Below are positions 9,426 to 24,652 of a stretch of DNA of 64,000 bases, piece after piece. Positions within the stretch are counted from its first letter, which is position 1. The number at the start of each line of letters is the position of its first letter. This stretch comes from Pseudomonadota bacterium (GTDB lineage: Bacteria; Pseudomonadota; Alphaproteobacteria; Caulobacterales; Parvularculaceae). The stretch lies in contig JBCDHW010000013.1 in assembly GCA_038749595.1 (NCBI GenBank), positions 2,002 through 66,001 on the forward strand, read 5' to 3'. Position numbers and translations under genes: made by a program. The notes below the pieces were generated by a model. The model was given only the letters and a program-made list of their open reading frames with translations, was not told where the DNA came from and did no database searches.

Positions 9426-10781
9426 CTACTGGCTCGGGATAAGGTGCAACCTAGTCTGGCGGCCATCCATATAACGCACTGAAGTGCCATCAAAAAATGC
9501 GTCTTCTTCTGCTTTGAAGACGACATCCTGGCCGCCCCACTCGGGCACGCTGGCGACGTTATTCAACTCGATTGCCCACGCTGTCATCGGACGCAGCGGA
9601 AGAAATCCACTCGGGTGCTCTGTGGACTGATCGTCCCACCAGCCGATGCCGCTGCCCGCACCATGGCCATGGTATCCGATGCCGTGGCTATAATATGTCG
9701 GACGCAGACCATCAGCACGCGCCGCATCGAGAGCGCAGCCAAGGACCGCATTGCTCGACACGCCCACTTCGAAACAAGACGTCAAGTGATCGGTCGCTCG
9801 GTTCATCGCCGCGATACCCGTTTTCAGACCCTGCGGTGCGTCGGTCTCGCCGGGCGTCAGAATATAGGCGTGCTGCTGCGTGTCGGTGTTCATTCCCAAA
9901 TAGGTCACGCCGAAATCCACATGCACCAGATCTCCCGGTCGGATGACCTGCTCTTCGCCTAACGTTGCTGGCCAATTGTCGGCAACTCCCAACTCCTGGC
10001 GTTGGACACTGACCGAGGGATGAAACCATGTCCCAAGCCCGAGGGCCGTCAAGCGATCGCGCATCCACCATTCGACGTCCTCGGTCGTTGTTTCTCCCGG
10101 CGTGATCACCTGCCGAGAGAAGGCCGTCTCGATGATGTCATGGGCAATACGGACAATGCCAGGGAACACGGCCATTTCCGAGGCTGATCGCGTTTGAAGC
10201 CAGTTGATTGCCAACCGCTCACCGCTGACAACCCGCCGCCGGTACCGGCGCGGCAATGCAGCCATAAACTCTTTGTGCTGCCGATAGGCCATACCATCGG
10301 CGAGACCGAAGAGCGACGATGTATTGATGGCGATCTTTGCGGGATCGTGCTCGGCAATGAGCTCTGCAAGGCGGGCCCATTGATCCGGTTGTGTCTCAGG
10401 ATCCCAAGCCGAAGGGAAGAGCGTTCCTACGGGATAGCGGGCGACAGCATAGCGTGCGACGCCGGTTTCCGTTCGTGCAAAGAGCAAGATGGTCCGCCTA
10501 CGGGCGTTAAGCCACGTCGCGGGCAGCATCGTCTTGACGACGGGATCCTCGTTGTACTCCCGCGCGATCAAGACCCAAAGATCGATTTCGGCCTCGTCCA
10601 TCAGCTGCGGCATCAGGTTATCGAGACGCTCCTCAAGCCAAGCATCGCGCACGGCTGCGCGTTCTTTCATCGGCAGGATCTCGGCTCGGTCCGCGCGCGC
10701 ACCGGTGGTTGCGGGCTGCGCCCCAGCGGTCCCGGCGGCGGAAAATAGCGCTACGCACAATAAAAGAGCTATACGGATCAT
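9426..10781 (-). CDS. M24 family (Xaa-Pro) metallopeptidase with signal peptide
   Basis: GDLVHVDFG, TDTQQ, HGIGYHGH, IEL, AEED metal ligands; RBS GAGAGGA before Met 10781. Confidence 0.88.
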   Translation of the reverse strand: MIRIALLLCVALFSAAGTAGAQPATTGARADRAEILPMKERAAVRDAWLEERLDNLMPQLMDEAEIDLWVLIAREYNEDPVVKTMLPATWLNARRRTILLFARTETGVARYAVARYPVGTLFPSAWDPETQPDQWARLAELIAEHDPAKIAINTSSLFGLADGMAYRQHKEFMAALPRRYRRRVVSGERLAINWLQTRSASEMAVFPGIVRIAHDIIETAFSRQVITPGETTTEDVEWWMRDRLTALGLGTWFHPSVSVQRQELGVADNWPATLGEEQVIRPGDLVHVDFGVTYLGMNTDTQQHAYILTPGETDAPQGLKTGIAAMNRATDHLTSCFEVGVSSNAVLGCALDAARADGLRPTYYSHGIGYHGHGAGSGIGWWDDQSTEHPSGFLPLRPMTAWAIELNNVASVPEWGGQDVVFKAEEDAFFDGTSVRYMDGRQTRLHLIPSQ

Positions 10782-17461: not shown

Positions 17462-17494
17462 AAGAGCCCGCGGCTCCACCCGCGGGCTTTTTTT
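17462..17494 (+). terminator. rho-independent terminator between the M16 peptidase gene and uvrB
   Basis: AGCCCGCGG/CCGCGGGCT stem followed by T7. Confidence 0.85.
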
Positions 17495-19658
17495 ACGCCG
17501 TCTCGAGATCCAAATCCTGAAGCTTTTTGATCTCGTCGCGAAGCTCTGCAGCTTTTTCGAAATCAAGATCCGCCGCAGCTTCGCGCATCTGTTTTTCAAG
17601 CGCTTTGATATGGGCCTGGAGGTTCGGGCCGGGCTCGAACTTAGCCGGCGCTTCGGCCAATCCCGAAGCGCCGCCCGTCAAACGGGCTGAGCTAAACGTC
17701 GTCCCGGCGGCAGCTTTGGTCGCTTCGTCGTCGCTGTCGACGATCTCGGCGATTTTCGCCTTGACGGTTTTTGGCGTAATGCCGTGAGCCTCGTTGTGCT
17801 CAAGCTGTTTCGTGCGACGCCGCTCGGTTTCCGCAAGGGCGCGCTCCATCGATCCCGTCATACGATCCGCATAAAGAATAACGCGGCCGTCGACATTTCG
17901 GGCAGCGCGTCCGATCGTTTGGACGAGTGACGTCTCCGACCGCAAGAACCCCTCCTTGTCTGCGTCAAGGATCGCAACGAACTTGCACTCGGGGATATCA
18001 AGCCCTTCGCGCAGAAGGTTGATTCCGATCAACACATCAAAAACACCGAGGCGCAGATCGCGTATAATCTCTATACGTTCAACCGTATCCACGTCCGAGT
18101 GCATGTACCGCACACGAACACCCTGCTCATGCATATATTCCGTGAGGTCTTCTGCCATCTTTTTCGTCAGTGTCGTGACGAGCGAGCGGCCACCTTGCTT
18201 CGCGACCATTTTGACTTCGTCAATGACGTCGTCGACTTGGCTGAAATTATCCTTCGATACGGGGCGAATTTCTACGGGTGGATCCACGAGGCCGGTCGGA
18301 CGGATCACCTGCTCGACGAAAATACCTGACGTACGCTCAAGCTCCCAACCGCCGGGCGTGGCCGAGACATGCACCGTTTGTGGCCGCATCGCATCCCACT
18401 CTTCGAACTTCAGCGGGCGGTTATCCATACAACTCGGCAGTCGGAACCCATATTCCGCAAGCGTCCTTTTGCGCGCGTAGTCGCCTTTGAACATCGCGCC
18501 AATCTGGGGAACCGTCACGTGACTTTCGTCGGCGAACAGGAGAGCATTCTCTGGCAGATATTCAAACAACGTAGGCGGAGGTTCGCCGGGGTTTCTTCCG
18601 GTCAGGTAGCGCGAGTAGTTTTCGATCCCTTGGCACGCGCCGGTCGCAGCCATCATTTCAAGATCAAACTGGACTCTTTGTTCGAGGCGTTGGGCTTCCA
18701 GCAACTTTCCTTCTTTCTGAAGGATCGGCAGTGTACGTGCCAACTCAGCTTTAATTTGATCCATGGCACGGGACAGCGTTGGACGCGGGGTTACATAGTG
18801 ACTGTTTGCGTACAGACGGACTTTCTCAAGCGATTGAACTTTTTTGCCGGTGAGAGGGTCAAACTCGACGATCTCTTCGATTTCATCACCGAACAAAGTG
18901 ACACGCCAAGCGGCGTCTTCGTAGTGGGCTGGGAAAATCTCGATCGTATCGCCACGTGCACGGAAGGTTCCGCGCTGGAACGCTTGATCGTTCCGCTTAT
19001 ATTGGAGAGCGACGAGGTCCGCGAGCAATTGCTTTCGTTCGATCTGCTCGCCGACGGCGAGGTCAAACACCATTGCCGTATACGTCTCAACAGATCCGAT
19101 ACCATAAAGACAGGAAACCGACGCCACGATGATAACGTCATCGCGCTCCAAAAGCGCCCGCGTCGCAGAATGCCGCATACGGTCGATCTGCTCGTTAATC
19201 GTCGACTCTTTCTCGATATAAGTATCCGTACGCGGAACGTAGGCTTCCGGCTGGTAGTAGTCGTAATAGCTGACAAAATACTCGACGGCATTGTTGGGGA
19301 AGAACGCCTTGAACTCACCGTAGAGCTGCGCTGCGAGGGTTTTGTTGTGCGCCAAAATGAGGGCGGGCCGTTGAGTCGCCTCGATCACCTTCGCCATGGT
19401 GAAAGTTTTGCCCGAGCCCGTGACACCGAGCAGAACCTGGTCGCGGTCATGCACCTTAATCCCGCTGACCAACTCTTCGATAGCGGCAGGCTGGTCGCCG
19501 GCTGGCTGGTAGTCGGAGACGACTTCAAATCGGCGTCCGCCCTCGGATTTTTCCGGGCGCTCTGGGCGATGGGGGACCCAGGCTGATGGCTTCAGGCGAC
19601 CGTGATAGGTGGCGATGGCTTCGGAGAAGCCTTGGTCGGTTGGCAGAATGTCATCCAT
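17493..19658 (-). CDS. uvrB: excinuclease ABC subunit B
   Basis: [45 protein letters not shown]-terminal UVR domain. Confidence 0.99.
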
Positions 19659-19771
19659 CGGTTGGATGTAGCGACCGACGTCGCACAACGGTAGGGGCGC
19701 GTGGGCGCAGCTGGGCGACGACAGAAAACGAACCCGGTTCGTCGGACGAATTGGAAACGCGTTTGGCGCTT

Positions 19772-20020
19772 CTACGAGAAACGCTGCTTTCTTCGGGCGA
19801 GAAGGCGATCGACCTCGTTTTTTAAGGCGCGGTCGGCGTAGATAAGCTCCCTCATCGAACTCAGATCAAAGGTGTTGCGGAGATACCGCGCAGCCCGCTC
19901 CAGGGGCAAGGATCGTTCTGCGAGGAATTTTTCAACCTCACGCCGCCGCACACCACGCAGCTCGCCGTCAATGTAGGCGTGAATGTCCTGCTCAGTGATT
20001 AGGTGAAATTCGGAGCGCAT
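19772..20020 (-). CDS. short anti-sigma-factor-like protein (PrtR/RsiW-type N-terminal domain only, no TM)
   Basis: [14 protein letters not shown]...RREVE.FL motif; overlaps the 3' end of the ECF gene by 22 nt. Confidence 0.7.
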
Positions 20021-20553
20021 ACCCCAACGGACACCGGCGCGGCGCGATTCGTTCCGTCAAGAGGCTTCGAATCAAGCATGTCGCGGAGGCGTGACCGGGC
20101 GCGGCTGAGCCGCGAACGCACCGTACCCACCGGAACATCGAGCAATTCTGCGGCCTCTTCATACTTGAGGCCCTCAATGGCGATGAGTGAAAGCACCACT
20201 TTATCGTTGAGCGGAAGCTCCCGAAAACTCTGGACGACATCGTGGTAATGCATGGTCTCCTCCTGGCTGGGGTCGATGGAAAGGGTTGAGGCGGGGGCGT
20301 CTTCAAGCTCGACCGACTGGCCGCGGGAGCGCTCCTTGCGCAGCTGATTGAGAAAAACCCGGCGGCAGACGGTGAACATCCAAGACCGCAGATTTTGACC
20401 GTCGAACAGATGCTGTTTTCGAATGCACCGCTCAACGCAGTCTTGGACCAAGTCCGAGGCACGATCCGGGCTACGGGTCAGGGTCAACGCAAACCGGTTC
20501 AGCGCAGGTAGGCAGTGATTGAGTTCAGTAACAGTAAAAGTATGAGCGTCCAT
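19999..20553 (-). CDS. ECF sigma-70 factor
   Basis: LP.L.RFA..LTR....A.DLVQD, LRSWMFTV, EGLKYEEAAELL.VPVGTVRSRLSRAR; RBS GAGG. Confidence 0.93.
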   Translation of the reverse strand: MDAHTFTVTELNHCLPALNRFALTLTRSPDRASDLVQDCVERCIRKQHLFDGQNLRSWMFTVCRRVFLNQLRKERSRGQSVELEDAPASTLSIDPSQEETMHYHDVVQSFRELPLNDKVVLSLIAIEGLKYEEAAELLDVPVGTVRSRLSRARSRLRDMLDSKPLDGTNRAAPVSVGVCAPNFT

Positions 20554-20747
20554 AAATAACCTCAGCAATCAAGGGATTAATTGAGGCTAATGGATCCCGC
20601 CAAAGGTGGCAAAGTCTTTTGACGTCTACACTCACTGACAATTACGGCGACCACGCAGTGACTACTGCGCATGTGAATACTTATATGAACAGATACATTG
20701 CTTATACAATGCTTGAGTATCCATGCCTTTCTGAGAGTTATGATGCA

Positions 20748-20766
20748 CATGAGTATGTCACTCATG
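20748..20766. promoter_or_regulatory. 7-5-7 inverted repeat CATGAGT-ATGTC-ACTCATG in the AT-rich region upstream of the ECF gene
   Basis: palindrome read directly; TGAGTAT also occurs at 20714-20720; function unknown. Confidence 0.4.
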
Positions 20767-20991
20767 CCGAAAGCCAGGTGCTGGTTGGTTCTGTCTCGCG
20801 GCAGCACCCGGAGGCTGTTGTGGTCGTTCACCCGATCCGAGGCCGATGCAGCGAAGGACACCGTTAGAGTTCGCGGCACCCGAACGACCGCAAGGGCGGA
20901 ATGGCGCCAGTCACGCCCACTCACAGCGAGAATTCTCAGATGAAGAACATTTCACAAGGCGGTGAAATGTCGAACACGACTTTAGTCGAAC

Positions 20992-21198
20992 CTAGGGCGC
21001 CTTCCGGATCAGCCGCAGCTTCTCCTCGGCTGCGTCAGGGTGCTCTTCAGTGAGGCTAAGGCCAAGCGCGATAAGCTCGCGGACAGCTGAGGACCGGTTT
21101 TCCGCACGATGCGCGAAACGCCAGTCGTCAATGTTCTCAAGCTCGCTGTCCGTTACGAGGATTTGGAGCTTAGAGAGCCGTTTTTCATGTGCCGCCAT
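20992..21198 (-). CDS. small ribbon-helix-helix-like DNA-binding protein
   Basis: KLQILVTDSELENIDDWRFAHR..NRSSAVRELIALGL, a recurring small alphaproteobacterial family (beta-strand, helix, turn, helix). Confidence 0.75.
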   Translation of the reverse strand: MAAHEKRLSKLQILVTDSELENIDDWRFAHRAENRSSAVRELIALGLSLTEEHPDAAEEKLRLIRKAP

Positions 21199-21264
21199 AA
21201 AGCGTCGACACTCCACACTGACCCTGCCCGGGCAGCGGCCTACTACTGATGGGTCGTTGTGCTT

Positions 21265-22026
21265 CTAGGCACGCCGAACGTCAAGGCAGTGGACCACTGC
21301 CGCACGAACATTATCAGGCGTATAGGGTTTGCTGATCACGAAATCTGGTTCGATTTCATCACCATGGAGGACGCGATCGGGAAAGCCTGTGATGAAAACT
21401 ACAGGGCAATCGTGCACTTCGCTGATCTGCGTCATCGCTTCGACACCGGTCGTATTCCCGTCCAGATTGTAGTCGGCGAGAATGATGTCGGGGCGATTCG
21501 CGGCCGCCTTTTCAACCGCCGCCGGCGCAGTGCGGGCCTGTCCGCAAACGTTGACACCAAGCCGATCGAGGATCCCGCGGATGTCGGCCGCAATCAGCGG
21601 CTCATTCTCGACCACGAGAGCCGTTGCTGAGGTCTCCACAGCAAGCGCATTTCTCGTCGCATGCAGCAGCGGAATGGGGTCACGCTTCAGCCCAATGACC
21701 TGCGCCGCGGTCTCAGGTTGGAGCCCCAAGGCATCGACCATCAAAAGAAGAAGCCGCGAGTCCTCTGGCGGTACGGGTAAGGAGTCGATCAAAGCCGCAT
21801 CTGAAAAGAGCGTGGGATTCGCGACCCTTTCCTTCACGGCCATGCGCCAGGAGTGCAGAAACGCCGACATCATATCGACGACAGAAGACGAAGAACTGGT
21901 CGGGTCGATCGAAACGCGCGCCATCGTCAGACGCAGAAGCTCATCGCCAATCAGTCGGTCAGCAAAAACTGCTCGGGAAAATTGGCGGACGACCGCAAGC
22001 GGGGGGCGTGTCATCACGTTTAACAT
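21265..22026 (-). CDS. phyR: PhyR-like response regulator (degenerate sigma-like N-terminus plus C-terminal receiver)
   Basis: LVVENEPLIA.DI, RPDIILAD, PVVFITGFP.R.L.G...EP.FVI.KPY; N-terminal R.FSRAVF....GD resembles the PhyR sigma-like domain. Confidence 0.8.
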   Translation of the reverse strand: MLNVMTRPPLAVVRQFSRAVFADRLIGDELLRLTMARVSIDPTSSSSSVVDMMSAFLHSWRMAVKERVANPTLFSDAALIDSLPVPPEDSRLLLLMVDALGLQPETAAQVIGLKRDPIPLLHATRNALAVETSATALVVENEPLIAADIRGILDRLGVNVCGQARTAPAAVEKAAANRPDIILADYNLDGNTTGVEAMTQISEVHDCPVVFITGFPDRVLHGDEIEPDFVISKPYTPDNVRAAVVHCLDVRRA

Positions 22027-22115
22027 GGCGGGCTTAGCCCCTTTCGTATGCTGCCCCAACACAACGTGTGTGCGGCAGTCTCGAACAGCGAACTTCAACC
22101 CTGGCTCTGAAATAC

Positions 22116-22535
22116 TTAAGCATCCGCGCGCAGAGTCCAGTGGTTCGAGAAGAGAAAGTCGCGGGTCGCAAGCAAAAGTGATCGCACATCGGGCTCGTCC
22201 AGCCCCATGATCCCCGCTGCCTCTTCAATGGAAAATTCCTCAATCACCACCAGCGCGAATGCCACACGCTGATGGTAAGGGAGAGACGAAAACCTCGCCA
22301 CGATCGACCGCGGCTGGCTCACACCGAGGGAAACATCCTCCTGATCAAACGCGGACATTTGACCCAACAAAGCGCGAAACGCGCCCGCGATGGTGTCACC
22401 AGGGTGTTTATTTTCAAACGGTTCGATCGCATCAAGCGCGCTTAATGCATGGCCGCTGGACGGCGCGATACAAAGCGCGAAACGGCTGAGGCGGGCCACC
22501 AAACCCGGAACTTCACTCGGTGCTTCAATAGACAT
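22116..22535 (-). CDS. stand-alone degenerate sigma-like protein (PhyR N-terminal-like, region 2/4 remnants)
   Basis: L.RFAL (region-2-like) and LPYHQRVAF.LVVIEEFSIEEAAGIMG (region-4-like); no receiver domain. Confidence 0.65.
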   Translation of the reverse strand: MSIEAPSEVPGLVARLSRFALCIAPSSGHALSALDAIEPFENKHPGDTIAGAFRALLGQMSAFDQEDVSLGVSQPRSIVARFSSLPYHQRVAFALVVIEEFSIEEAAGIMGLDEPDVRSLLLATRDFLFSNHWTLRADA

Positions 22536-22637: not shown

Positions 22638-23930
22638 TTAGGAGGCCGCAGAGGCCAGGGGCACGGTCATGGTGGCGATGAGCCCGCCCACCTCACGGTT
22701 CTTGAGCGAAAGTGTTCCGCCGTGGGCCTCGGCGACGGCCTTCGCAATCGAGAGGCCCAGGCCAGTTCCACCCTTTGCTCGGCTACGCGAGGGCTCAGCA
22801 CGCTCAAACGGTTGGAGCATCTGTTCCATCAGCTCTGGGGGGATACCCGGCCCGTCATCGGTCACCACAAACTGTGCGCACTGCCCCGATTGATAAACGG
22901 AGACCTCAGCGTGGGTGCCGTAGCGCACAGCATTATCGATAAGGTTCCTGAGGGCGCGCAACAACGCTTGCGGCGCACCATCGACGGTCAGGCCTTCGGT
23001 CTCGCGGATGCTGAGCACCTCGGCCGCATAGTCCGCCTGCAGATTACGCAGAAGCGCATCGGCGCGAACCCGCTCACGCCCGTCGGGGGTCGTCGCCTGC
23101 GAGAATGCTAGGACATCGTCGAGGGTCGCTGCCAACGCTTCGATCGAAGAGATCATCTCGGCACGAAGCTTTTCGTCAGCCACAGACTCAACGCGAATTC
23201 GCAGGGATGCGAGGGGCGTTCTGAGGTCATGGCCGATCGCACCAAACATCACCGCTTTCTCTTCTAATGTCTTCAGTACACGTTGCTCCAGCGATGCAAA
23301 GGCCTTGCACAGTGCTTCGACGTCGGGTGGCCCGCCTGACGGTAGGGAGGGTGCCGGCCTTCCCGTCAAGAAACCGTCGGCTGCAGCGGTCAGCTGGCGC
23401 AGGGGGGTTGCCACGCGGCGACCGACCCAGACCGCAGGAATGAGAAGGACAAGGGTCAGAACGGCCGTCTGTACGCTGATCGCCACCCATGGCGCACGCA
23501 CCGAGGGCGGAAGGATCTGCCGATAATGGATCCAACGCCCGTCGGTCAGTTGCGCCGCTGCGATCACAAAGGGAGGCCGTCCGCGTTCGGCAAAGACGAC
23601 GACCCTGACGTCGCGGTCCCCCAGGTCATTGTCGGCGAAGACGCGCAGCAAGGCCGACTCGGCGGTTTCGTCGCGCACGCCCTCTTGGGGCGGTCGCGAT
23701 AGGATGCGCACCGCCTGGCGGCGACCCAGGCGGCGACTTGCTCCGGGAGAGAACTCGGCCATGCGAACGGCCTGGGTCAGGCGCTCGGCGGTAATGTCTT
23801 CAAACCGCTCCCATCGTAAGTTACGCTGGACCTCAACCAAAACTAAGCCGTTGATCAGCTGACAGATCAAAACCAACGCGACGATCAGAAGTGTCAGGCG
23901 GGCTGATATTCCGAGCTTAGGAAATTTCAC
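22638..23930 (-). CDS. sensor histidine kinase (2 TM, HAMP, HisKA, HATPase)
   Basis: AIGHDLRTPL, RNLIDNAVRYG, DDGPGIP, GTGLGL. Confidence 0.95.
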   Translation of the reverse strand: MKFPKLGISARLTLLIVALVLICQLINGLVLVEVQRNLRWERFEDITAERLTQAVRMAEFSPGASRRLGRRQAVRILSRPPQEGVRDETAESALLRVFADNDLGDRDVRVVVFAERGRPPFVIAAAQLTDGRWIHYRQILPPSVRAPWVAISVQTAVLTLVLLIPAVWVGRRVATPLRQLTAAADGFLTGRPAPSLPSGGPPDVEALCKAFASLEQRVLKTLEEKAVMFGAIGHDLRTPLASLRIRVESVADEKLRAEMISSIEALAATLDDVLAFSQATTPDGRERVRADALLRNLQADYAAEVLSIRETEGLTVDGAPQALLRALRNLIDNAVRYGTHAEVSVYQSGQCAQFVVTDDGPGIPPELMEQMLQPFERAEPSRSRAKGGTGLGLSIAKAVAEAHGGTLSLKNREVGGLIATMTVPLASAAS

Positions 23931-24652
23931 CGGACACGGACTTTCGCCGCGAGTGTATAGCCGCCGCCGCGGACCGTCTTGATCAACATGGGATTGGCGC
24001 TGTCCCGCTCAACCTTCCGCCTTAATCGGCTCACCTGATTGTCCACCGATCGATCGAAGACATCGGCGCGGCGGTTTTGCGTCAGCTCGAGGAGGTCATC
24101 GCGGCTGACCACCCGGCCAGCACGTTCGGCGAGGACTTGGAGCAAGCGAAACTCTCCACCGGTCAGCGGGATCAATGCACCGTCACGCCCGACGAGTTGG
24201 TGGCGTGTCAATTGCATCGTCAGATCATCGAAAAGGTACGTTTCTGGAAGCTGGTCTTTATCCTCCGTACGCGTACCGCGGCGGAGGACAGCGCGGATCC
24301 GCGCCACCAGCTCGCGCGGTGAGAATGGCTTCGCGACGTAATCGTCAGCACCAAGCTCTAATCCCACCACGCGATCCGTCTCCTCAGCGCGCGCGGTTAG
24401 CAGGATTACGGGGAGATCCTGTGCGGCGAGGAGATAGCGGGCGAGGGATAGGCCGTCCTCGCCCGGCATCATCACGTCGAGCAACGCCAGATCAAACGCC
24501 TGCGCTGCGACGTGTTCCCGGGCCTCGGCCGCATCAGCTGCTGTGACGACGTCAAACTGCTCCCGCTGTAGATAGTCCGTAAGCGGTTCTCTGATGGAGG
24601 GTTCATCGTCGACAAGAAGAAGCTTTGCGGCCTTCGGCCCGGAAGGTGTCAT
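23927..24652 (-). CDS. OmpR-family response regulator
   Basis: LLVDDE, LLDVMMPGEDGL, GADDYVAKPF, RSVDNQVSRLRRK, TVRGGGY. Confidence 0.97.
   Translation of the reverse strand: MTPSGPKAAKLLLVDDEPSIREPLTDYLQREQFDVVTAADAAEAREHVAAQAFDLALLDVMMPGEDGLSLARYLLAAQDLPVILLTARAEETDRVVGLELGADDYVAKPFSPRELVARIRAVLRRGTRTEDKDQLPETYLFDDLTMQLTRHQLVGRDGALIPLTGGEFRLLQVLAERAGRVVSRDDLLELTQNRRADVFDRSVDNQVSRLRRKVERDSANPMLIKTVRGGGYTLAAKVRVR

Follow-up and report, generated by a model that had tools for sequence, protein, structure and literature searches.

The general stress response (GSR) of Alphaproteobacteria is built, in its canonical form, from PhyR, NepR and EcfG together with kinases of the HWE/HisKA_2 type, and the first three proteins are treated as its invariant core. 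Variations on this scheme have been described: Methylobacterium and Rhizobium etli carry multiple EcfG/NepR copies (PMC4814048, PMC3892343), and the "GSR" locus of Rubellimicrobium thermophilum comprises PhyR, EcfG and an HWE kinase without a NepR of its own, with phosphorylation-independent behaviour described for the RT-PhyR' of that species (PMC11580852). Here, we focused our attention on a locus of five genes located at positions 19772-22535 of a 64,000-nt stretch of DNA (the window, meaning the whole stretch that was analysed) from the genome of a marine bacterium that homologues assign to Parvularcula. All five genes lie on the minus strand, and they encode a free sigma-like protein (SigLike), a PhyR-like regulator, a small protein resembling the ribbon-helix-helix (RHH) type, an extracytoplasmic function (ECF) sigma factor, hereafter ECFx, and a short soluble anti-sigma factor (AS82, belonging to what we call the AS family). 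We tentatively propose that the locus may be a lineage-specific GSR partner switch in which two of the three core parts have been replaced by unrelated ones, a reading to which we give somewhat less than an even chance.

A canonical phyR-nepR-ecfG locus was searched for in the entire genome, and all three core proteins proved to be missing: no protein of the genome scored above the family cut-off for canonical PhyR, no match to canonical EcfG was found at E<=1e-30, and the search with the NepR core family (PF18557) returned only one chance match elsewhere (E=0.5). These absences, which agree with the original prediction of a locus without NepR, span the whole genome (88 contigs, completeness 95.5%). 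A cryptic NepR was ruled out by the same genome-wide Pfam search, in which neither AS82 nor the RHH-like protein matched PF18557, and by the profile-profile comparison of the AS family with NepR, where the hhalign probability was 0.04-0.1%. When the stretch preceding the ECF gene was compared with that of relatives by tblastx and blastn, no hidden NepR appeared either; the only conserved coding signal there in the relatives is an antisense open reading frame (ORF).

Homology of the five gene products

The PhyR-like regulator aligned over its full length with the solved PhyR structures 5uxw, 4qic, 3n0r and 4g97 (E about 1e-29), and matched the NCBIfam PhyR model (NF006623) over model positions 9-253 of 258 with 159.3 bits, below both the curated cut-off of 240 and the 296-380 bits reached by canonical PhyRs of relatives. 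In hhalign comparisons, its N-terminal domain was closest to canonical PhyR N-domains (97.5%), followed by EcfG (94.8%) and ECFx (80.7%), and is accordingly predicted to be a descendant of PhyR. The receiver retains the phospho-acceptor Asp185, as well as Thr213 and Lys233. Its acidic pocket reads Glu-Asn-Glu, Asn141 (21604-21606, minus strand) being unique among 19 aligned PhyR-like sequences; 17 of the others share Glu-Asp-Glu with canonical PhyR, and in the remaining one (L026) the receiver is degenerate. Asn141 coincides with the loss of the locus kinase (described below) in the window genome. Homologues of the regulator (35-76% identity) are restricted, among the sampled genomes, to Parvularculaceae, and elsewhere in the order canonical PhyRs alone were matched, at 31-35% identity. 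Moreover, the dN/dS of 0.08 between the relatives G181 and G155 indicates purifying selection.

SigLike matched the Pfam family PhyR_sigma-like (PF22233) with 32 bits, above the cut-off, and also Sigma70_r4_2. It retains region 2.1 and the sigma-4 domain, lacks regions 2.2-2.4, and has lost the basic residues of the sigma-4 recognition helix, as is likewise the case in PhyR. Its profile was closer to the ECFx family (hhalign 97.1% over 118 columns) than to EcfG (88.5% over 47 columns), and the top fold matches of its AF2 model (pLDDT 77) were PhyR:NepR, EcfG:NepR and PhyR_SL:NepR structures. Both lines of evidence support the earlier suggestion that this free protein is a sigma mimic, which the profiles predict to derive from ECFx itself and whose model folds like an anti-sigma-bound sigma factor or PhyR_SL. 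Its 23 homologues all come from Parvularcula or from metagenome-assembled genomes (MAGs) and metagenome contigs, where they are at best named as hypothetical or generic sigma-like proteins; seven loci of Parvularcula were seen to contain SigLike, proteins of genus g44 are distantly related to it, and its dN/dS between G181 and G155 is 0.30.

ECFx and canonical EcfG share the same top five NCBIfam models, with 95-125 bits for the former versus 125-190 for the latter. The best solved structure for ECFx was that of B. quintana EcfG (5uxx, 94 bits; next match 64 bits), a ranking that reflects the small number of related structures in existence. In the tree, ECFx formed a clade of its own (96/95 support) that grouped with two further ECFs of the window genome and not with the five canonical EcfGs taken from relatives, a placement that involves long branches and a small sample. 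The tree and the absence of EcfG matches in the genome led us to reject ECFx as a canonical EcfG, so that, rather than a standard EcfG with a nepR elsewhere, the sequences describe an EcfG-related sigma factor of a distinct clade in a genome without NepR. Its nearest paralogue in the genome is a sigma factor on contig C6 (91 bits; G000:C6:150553-151900, L042 5554-6901, plus strand), whose gene is followed by that of an anti-sigma-like protein of 255 aa, which has a hydrophobic stretch in its centre and an N-terminus resembling AS82. The ECF reading frame of the window runs 10 codons beyond the stop position of most orthologues (19999-20030, minus strand), the usual stop having been lost. Orthologues usually end there in a conserved ..EGTxxAAxV tail, which, speculatively, might serve as a degradation signal, and the extension makes the ECF frame overlap the start of the anti-sigma gene, which begins 22 nt before the ECF stop codon (a 22-nt overlap).

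The anti-sigma factor was first described as being of the AYIDGEL type, and this holds in the sense of a class-I domain. AS82 itself matched zf-HC2 (PF13490) with 18.6 bits (E=0.002), below the 22.2-bit cut-off; the same family was matched by 11 of 18 AS family members (best E 7e-5), and the AS profile aligned with the N-terminal 64 residues of proteins of ~255 aa (hhalign 99.1%, E=7e-19). Matches to zf-HC2 were obtained with several of these longer proteins, in whose N-terminal sequences residue ~80 is followed by a hydrophobic, probably membrane-spanning, stretch. AS82 consists of the N-terminal class-I anti-sigma domain without zinc ligands, there being no His or Cys at the position of the HxxxCxxC motif, and of a conserved amphipathic C-terminal helix (IYxDxxLxxxVxxLLxxR). 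Its AF2 model contains four helices (pLDDT 74); the fold search with it returned nothing significant (E>=3), with anti-sigma factors making up 5 of the 12 weak matches, and profile searching against solved structures gave no match. On the strength of these profiles, AS82 is predicted to be a truncated class-I (zf-HC2 type) anti-sigma domain, and not a NepR. The possibility of a truncated pseudogene was rejected, as the family is natively 76-107 aa long across about 40 clusters.

The AS gene lies directly downstream of ECFx in four genera. In genomes with a PhyR-like gene the protein is short and soluble, whereas the AS-like neighbour of two ECFx genes from PhyR-less loci (L043, L044) ends in a hydrophobic segment, probably membrane-anchoring. 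Three AS-family paralogues surround the ECFx locus in genomes of genus g2 (L022-L024), which have no NepR. In addition, the ~255-aa "..HAYVDGEL.." proteins (P0172, P0188, P0224 and others) carry a segment, "..LRxxYDxVLxEPVPxRL..", that resembles the NepR core; it aligned with the NepR of L032-L036 at 64% hhalign probability (E=6.6e-5, 29 columns), and the Pfam NepR family was weakly matched by one of these proteins. This similarity suggests that NepR may have been derived from helices 3-4 of a class-I anti-sigma domain.

The identity of the RHH-like protein is the weakest of the five gene assignments. Its fold matches were limited to the N-terminal domain of NikR (E=0.027 with the single sequence, E=0.61 with the family profile), and its sequence pattern, strand-helix-helix with an "NRSxAxR" helix start, fits an RHH protein. 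The family counts 26 members in the fetched loci and has a highly conserved core (KLQILVTDSEL..IDDWRF.NRA..RSxAVR.LI.LGL); the gene adjoins either the PhyR-like gene or ECFx, and accompanies both more constantly than any other gene of the module.

Upstream of the ECF gene, two further elements were observed. A sigma-70-like sequence, TTGAC[CG]-N17-TAA/TAG, precedes the gene in Parvularcula relatives and is conserved in position, although the generic promoter scan did not call the window site. About 130 nt upstream of this element, and ~200 nt upstream of the ECF start, lies a perfect palindrome. Clusters of its heptamers, CATGAGT/ACTCATG, precede ECFx in genus g44 and in the majority of Parvularcula loci, and were not found in the loci of genus g2. 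Just two copies of the exact 10-mer CATGAGTGAC are present in the genome, in which a second paired ACTCATG/CATGAGT arrangement was not found. The palindrome is a candidate operator for the RHH-like protein.

The features of the locus are collected in Table 1. The inventory of five co-oriented genes in the original prediction was recovered unchanged, its coordinates coinciding exactly with the gene boundaries. The adjoining EnvZ/OmpR pair was considered as a part of the module and rejected, its synteny with the module being genus-internal only; the two genes are merely neighbours.

Table 1. Features of the locus and its surroundings, with positions in the window.
Feature	Position	Strand	Basis or remark
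uvrB	17493-19688		Borders the module on the side opposite the EnvZ/OmpR pair
Soluble anti-sigma factor AS82 (AS family), 82 aa	19772-20020	-	Weak zf-HC2 match
ECF sigma factor ECFx	19999-20553	-	Sigma70_r2 and r4_2 matches
Candidate sigma-70-like promoter of the ECF gene, TTGCCA-N17-TAGCCT	20584-20612	-	Position conserved in relatives
Palindrome CATGAGT-N5-ACTCATG, candidate operator	20748-20766	-	Heptamer clusters in relatives
RHH-like small protein	20992-21216 (probable start 21198, giving 68 aa)	-	Family conservation, weak NikR match
PhyR-like regulator, 253 aa (sigma-like N-domain and receiver)	21265-22026	-	PhyR model, solved PhyRs
Stand-alone sigma mimic SigLike, 139 aa	22116-22535	-	PF22233 (PhyR_sigma-like); length set by homologues
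EnvZ-like kinase	22638-23930	-	Directly upstream of the module
OmpR-like regulator	23927-24652	-	Directly upstream of the module

The module across Parvularculaceae

The distribution of the module was surveyed in 121 genomes of the same GTDB family (Parvularculaceae), from which 20 loci around PhyR-like genes were fetched. Canonical PhyR, NepR and EcfG share one and the same distribution, 8 of the 121 genomes. The PhyR-like regulator is found in 27 (about a quarter) and is exclusive with the canonical trio save in one contaminated MAG (G198), which is also the only genome with a PhyR-like gene in which NepR (PF18557) was detected. Neither version of the regulator is present in the ~86 others, and the family seems often to have lost the general stress switch. 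ECFx is present in 25 of the 27 genomes with a PhyR-like gene, and in both exceptions that gene sits on a contig fragment of ~2 kb. The RHH-like gene lies directly downstream of the PhyR-like gene in nearly all 20 loci, and ECFx (55-77% identity) within ~3 kb of it in most, the distance in genus g44 being ~200 kb. Overall, the neighbourhood is conserved, with PhyR-like, RHH-like, ECFx and AS genes co-localised across at least four genera. Some genomes of genus g2 (G081, G091, G101) have a second PhyR-like paralogue and no NepR; a second paralogue in the loci L028 and L029 adjoins the gene of a ~460-aa kinase and, in L028, also another RHH gene. Another Parvularcula genome, G111 (L049, G111:C1:305000-318000), carries a canonical PhyR-NepR-EcfG locus and, beside uvrB, an RHH-ECFx pair (62% identity) at the same site as in the window, without the PhyR-like, SigLike and AS genes.

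Sister species within Parvularcula carry a richer locus. A kinase gene matching HWE_HK (35-37 bits against a cut-off of 22.8), whose product has a core resembling LOV-HK and PhyK, stands between their RHH and ECF genes, and a Crp-like regulator is encoded upstream. Between the locus kinase and the ECF gene lies the antisense ORF mentioned above (75-84% nucleotide identity; L010 ~10050-10210, minus strand, L011-L013 and L016), which we take to encode an entericidin-like small lipoprotein. A weak DUF883 match (E=0.013, below cut-off) was obtained in L016, and in L020 a gene that looks like one for a PRC-barrel protein lies behind an exact GGAAC-N16-CGTT; entericidin-like, DUF883 and PRC-barrel genes would be typical of a stress regulon.

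The window genome is without homologues of the sister species' locus kinase, Crp-like regulator and antisense ORF. Its only kinase of the HWE/HisKA_2 type is a 354-aa LOV-HisKA_2 protein (G000:C1:142129-143193; L041 6129-7193, minus strand) that matches the NCBIfam model BluLightHisKinLov over its full length with 173 bits, in agreement with a blue-light kinase, and might signal to the PhyR-like regulator from its remote site. The reduced, kinase-less layout is common to the window and two other species, which form one clade in the ECF tree.

The motif GGAAC-N16/17-CGTT has 4 matches in the window, none of them in 19772-22535 and their number not above chance; the closest near-match, GGAAC-N16-CGTG at 22694-22718, belongs to the 3'-terminal part of the EnvZ-like kinase gene. 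Most relatives carry GGAAC-N16-[CT]GTT at a distance of 35-60 nt before the PhyR-like start. As these genomes are without EcfG, some other ECF must read the site, the co-localised ECFx being the obvious candidate. ECFx thus appears to keep an EcfG-like promoter preference (GGAAC-N16-YGTT). The original statements that the locus has neither an HWE/HisKA_2-type kinase nor a GGAAC-type promoter hold for the window and not for its sister species, whose loci make the module more GSR-like than the description "non-canonical" conveyed. Compared with them, the window is best interpreted as a reduced derivative that has lost the ECF-type promoter as well as the genes of the locus kinase and Crp-like regulator, and whose receiver has acquired Asn141.

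A possible partner switch and its alternatives

From gene content, homologies, distribution and promoter motifs, we infer a set of protein-protein and protein-DNA contacts that would make up the proposed partner switch. The PhyR descendant would work with ECFx instead of EcfG, and with a cytoplasmic class-I AS instead of NepR. AS would hold ECFx inactive; an HWE/HisKA_2 kinase would phosphorylate the PhyR-like regulator, exposing its sigma-like domain; and this domain, in Parvularcula also the free SigLike, would capture AS and release ECFx, which would then transcribe the PhyR-like gene (positive feedback) and stress genes. The RHH-like protein would probably be a DNA-binding co-regulator of the ECFx region. 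In the window, where neither the locus kinase nor the ECF-type promoter is left and Asn141 sits in the acidic pocket, the input would have to be supplied by the distant LOV-HisKA_2 kinase or else require no phosphorylation, and SigLike would act as a constitutive decoy.

The exclusivity with the canonical trio, the near-obligate pairing of PhyR-like regulator and ECFx, the locus kinases and the ECF-type promoter before the PhyR-like gene all fit such a switch, and further support comes from the homology of AS to class-I anti-sigma domains and from the overlap of its gene with the end of the ECF gene. The same holds for the full-length match of the regulator to solved PhyRs with its retained Asp, Thr and Lys, for the hhalign values of its N-domain against PhyR and EcfG, for the co-localisation of the genes in at least four genera, for the short soluble form of AS in genomes with a PhyR-like gene, and for the ECFx-derived SigLike and its fold. 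A more elaborate version, in which the PhyR descendant and a phosphorylation-independent mimic (a new class of anti-anti-sigma factor) would compete for AS as a double decoy, and NepR would itself have been derived from helices 3-4 of the class-I domain, seems to us unlikely.

Several observations weigh against the proposed switch. G181 and G155 have no AS-family gene genome-wide, while their PhyR-like, SigLike, RHH and ECFx genes are intact; as the PhyR-like gene is kept in these genomes, AS cannot be its sole target. ECFx-RHH pairs occur in about 15 sampled genomes that have no PhyR-like gene, and the sigma-like domain of the PhyR-like regulator is closer to EcfG than to ECFx by the hhalign values given above. 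Judging from its sequence, the ECF gene is preceded by a promoter of the sigma-70 rather than the ECF type. The window lacks both the locus kinase and the GGAAC promoter, and its receiver carries Asn141. Finally, no regulon emerged in the window genome, where 5 of 101 GGAAC-N16/17-YGTT matches are intergenic, without enrichment. As genome-wide counts of the motif equalled those of controls in every genome tried, canonical-GSR genomes included, this test cannot reveal a regulon, and the genome-wide GGAAC-N16/17-CGTT counts were dropped as uninformative evidence.

Part of these observations would be explained by two systems lying side by side, ECFx and AS being an ordinary pair under transcriptional control by the RHH-like protein, and the PhyR-like regulator and SigLike a leftover of the GSR that would act on something else or have no anti-sigma target. 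Such an arrangement, which we consider somewhat unlikely, would account for the wide occurrence of ECFx with RHH in genomes without a PhyR-like gene, including the RHH-ECFx pair beside uvrB in G111, where a canonical GSR is encoded elsewhere; for the ~200 kb that separate ECFx-AS from PhyR-like-RHH in genus g44; for the retention of the PhyR-like gene in species without AS; and for an N-domain nearer to EcfG than to ECFx. It fares less well with the fact that the PhyR-like gene hardly ever occurs in a genome without ECFx and is strictly exclusive with canonical PhyR, NepR and EcfG, that an ECF-type promoter precedes the PhyR-like gene in genomes where ECFx is among the only EcfG-related sigma candidates, and that a short soluble AS correlates with the presence of the PhyR-like gene.

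We regard as rather improbable an alternative in which the real target would be the RHH-like protein, through derepression at the CATGAGT palindrome, or ECFx itself, leaving AS as an accessory brake. The invariant set across genomes with a PhyR-like gene is indeed PhyR-like, RHH and ECFx, AS excluded; RHH is the tightest-linked and best-conserved partner, staying with the PhyR-like gene when ECFx is elsewhere and with ECFx when the PhyR-like gene is absent; and the palindrome upstream of ECFx is conserved. Nevertheless, the RHH fold is weakly supported, the loci of genus g2 gave no palindrome and, to our knowledge, there is no precedent for a sigma-like domain binding an RHH protein. That the module of the window genome is a decaying remnant without regulated function is very improbable: the losses of the locus kinase, the Crp-like gene, the ECF-type promoter and the usual ECF stop (with its 10-aa extension), the unique Asp-to-Asn change in the acidic pocket and the longer branch of the window proteins would fit decay, but none of the five reading frames is broken, comparison with relatives gives dN/dS values of about 0.06-0.18 where measurable, two other species have the same kinase-less layout, which is therefore old and stable, and a LOV-HisKA_2 kinase is present elsewhere in the genome.

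Relation to known stress-response systems

Overall, a PhyR-type regulator persists here in genomes that lack both of its known partners, together with a different ECF, an anti-sigma factor of a different kind and a small uncharacterised protein. A limited literature search, which does not prove absence, brought up neither a PhyR-type regulator in a genome without NepR and EcfG nor a free ECF-derived mimic. If the proposed partner switch is correct, sigma-factor mimicry would be re-targetable to anti-sigma domains of class I, and a regulator could consist of a free sigma mimic; either result would broaden the design rules of partner switches. Moreover, natural variants in culturable Parvularcula species offer ready genetic contrasts, with or without the locus kinase, with or without the anti-sigma factor, and with Asp or Asn in the acidic pocket; the full module is present in P. 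lutaonensis and P. mediterranea, both culturable.

The canonical GSR of Caulobacter, Sphingomonas, Methylobacterium and Bartonella (PDB 3n0r, 3t0y, 2lfw, 4qic, 5uxx) is among the closest known systems. Like it, the module is confined to Alphaproteobacteria, has a regulator in which a sigma-like N-domain is joined to a receiver and whose homology to PhyR extends from end to end, and combines an ECF sigma factor with a small cytoplasmic anti-sigma factor; in the sister species, it also shares an HWE/HisKA_2 kinase in the locus and GGAAC-N16-YGTT before the regulator gene. Unlike it, the window genome has no NepR and no EcfG, and its sigma factor comes from another clade; the anti-sigma factor is a class-I domain encoded after the sigma gene instead of before it, an RHH-like gene and a free sigma mimic are added, and the regulator reaches only 159 bits on the PhyR model, whose family cut-off is 240 bits.

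In lacking a nepR of its own, the window locus resembles that of Rubellimicrobium; however, Rubellimicrobium, Methylobacterium and R. etli encode and use NepR and EcfG elsewhere in their genomes, and the window genome has neither. A second likeness is with ordinary pairs of an ECF and a ~255-aa anti-sigma-like protein ("..HAYVDGEL..EPVP.."), one of which lies on C6, given that AS82 is homologous to the N-terminal 64 residues of these proteins and that the sigma factor of the C6 pair has its nearest paralogue in ECFx. AS82 differs from them in having no transmembrane or extracytoplasmic part, in ending in an amphipathic helix and in co-occurring with a PhyR-type regulator. Set against both kinds of system, the module is a variant of the GSR that, among the sampled genomes, is restricted to Parvularculaceae and is present in the window in a reduced form.

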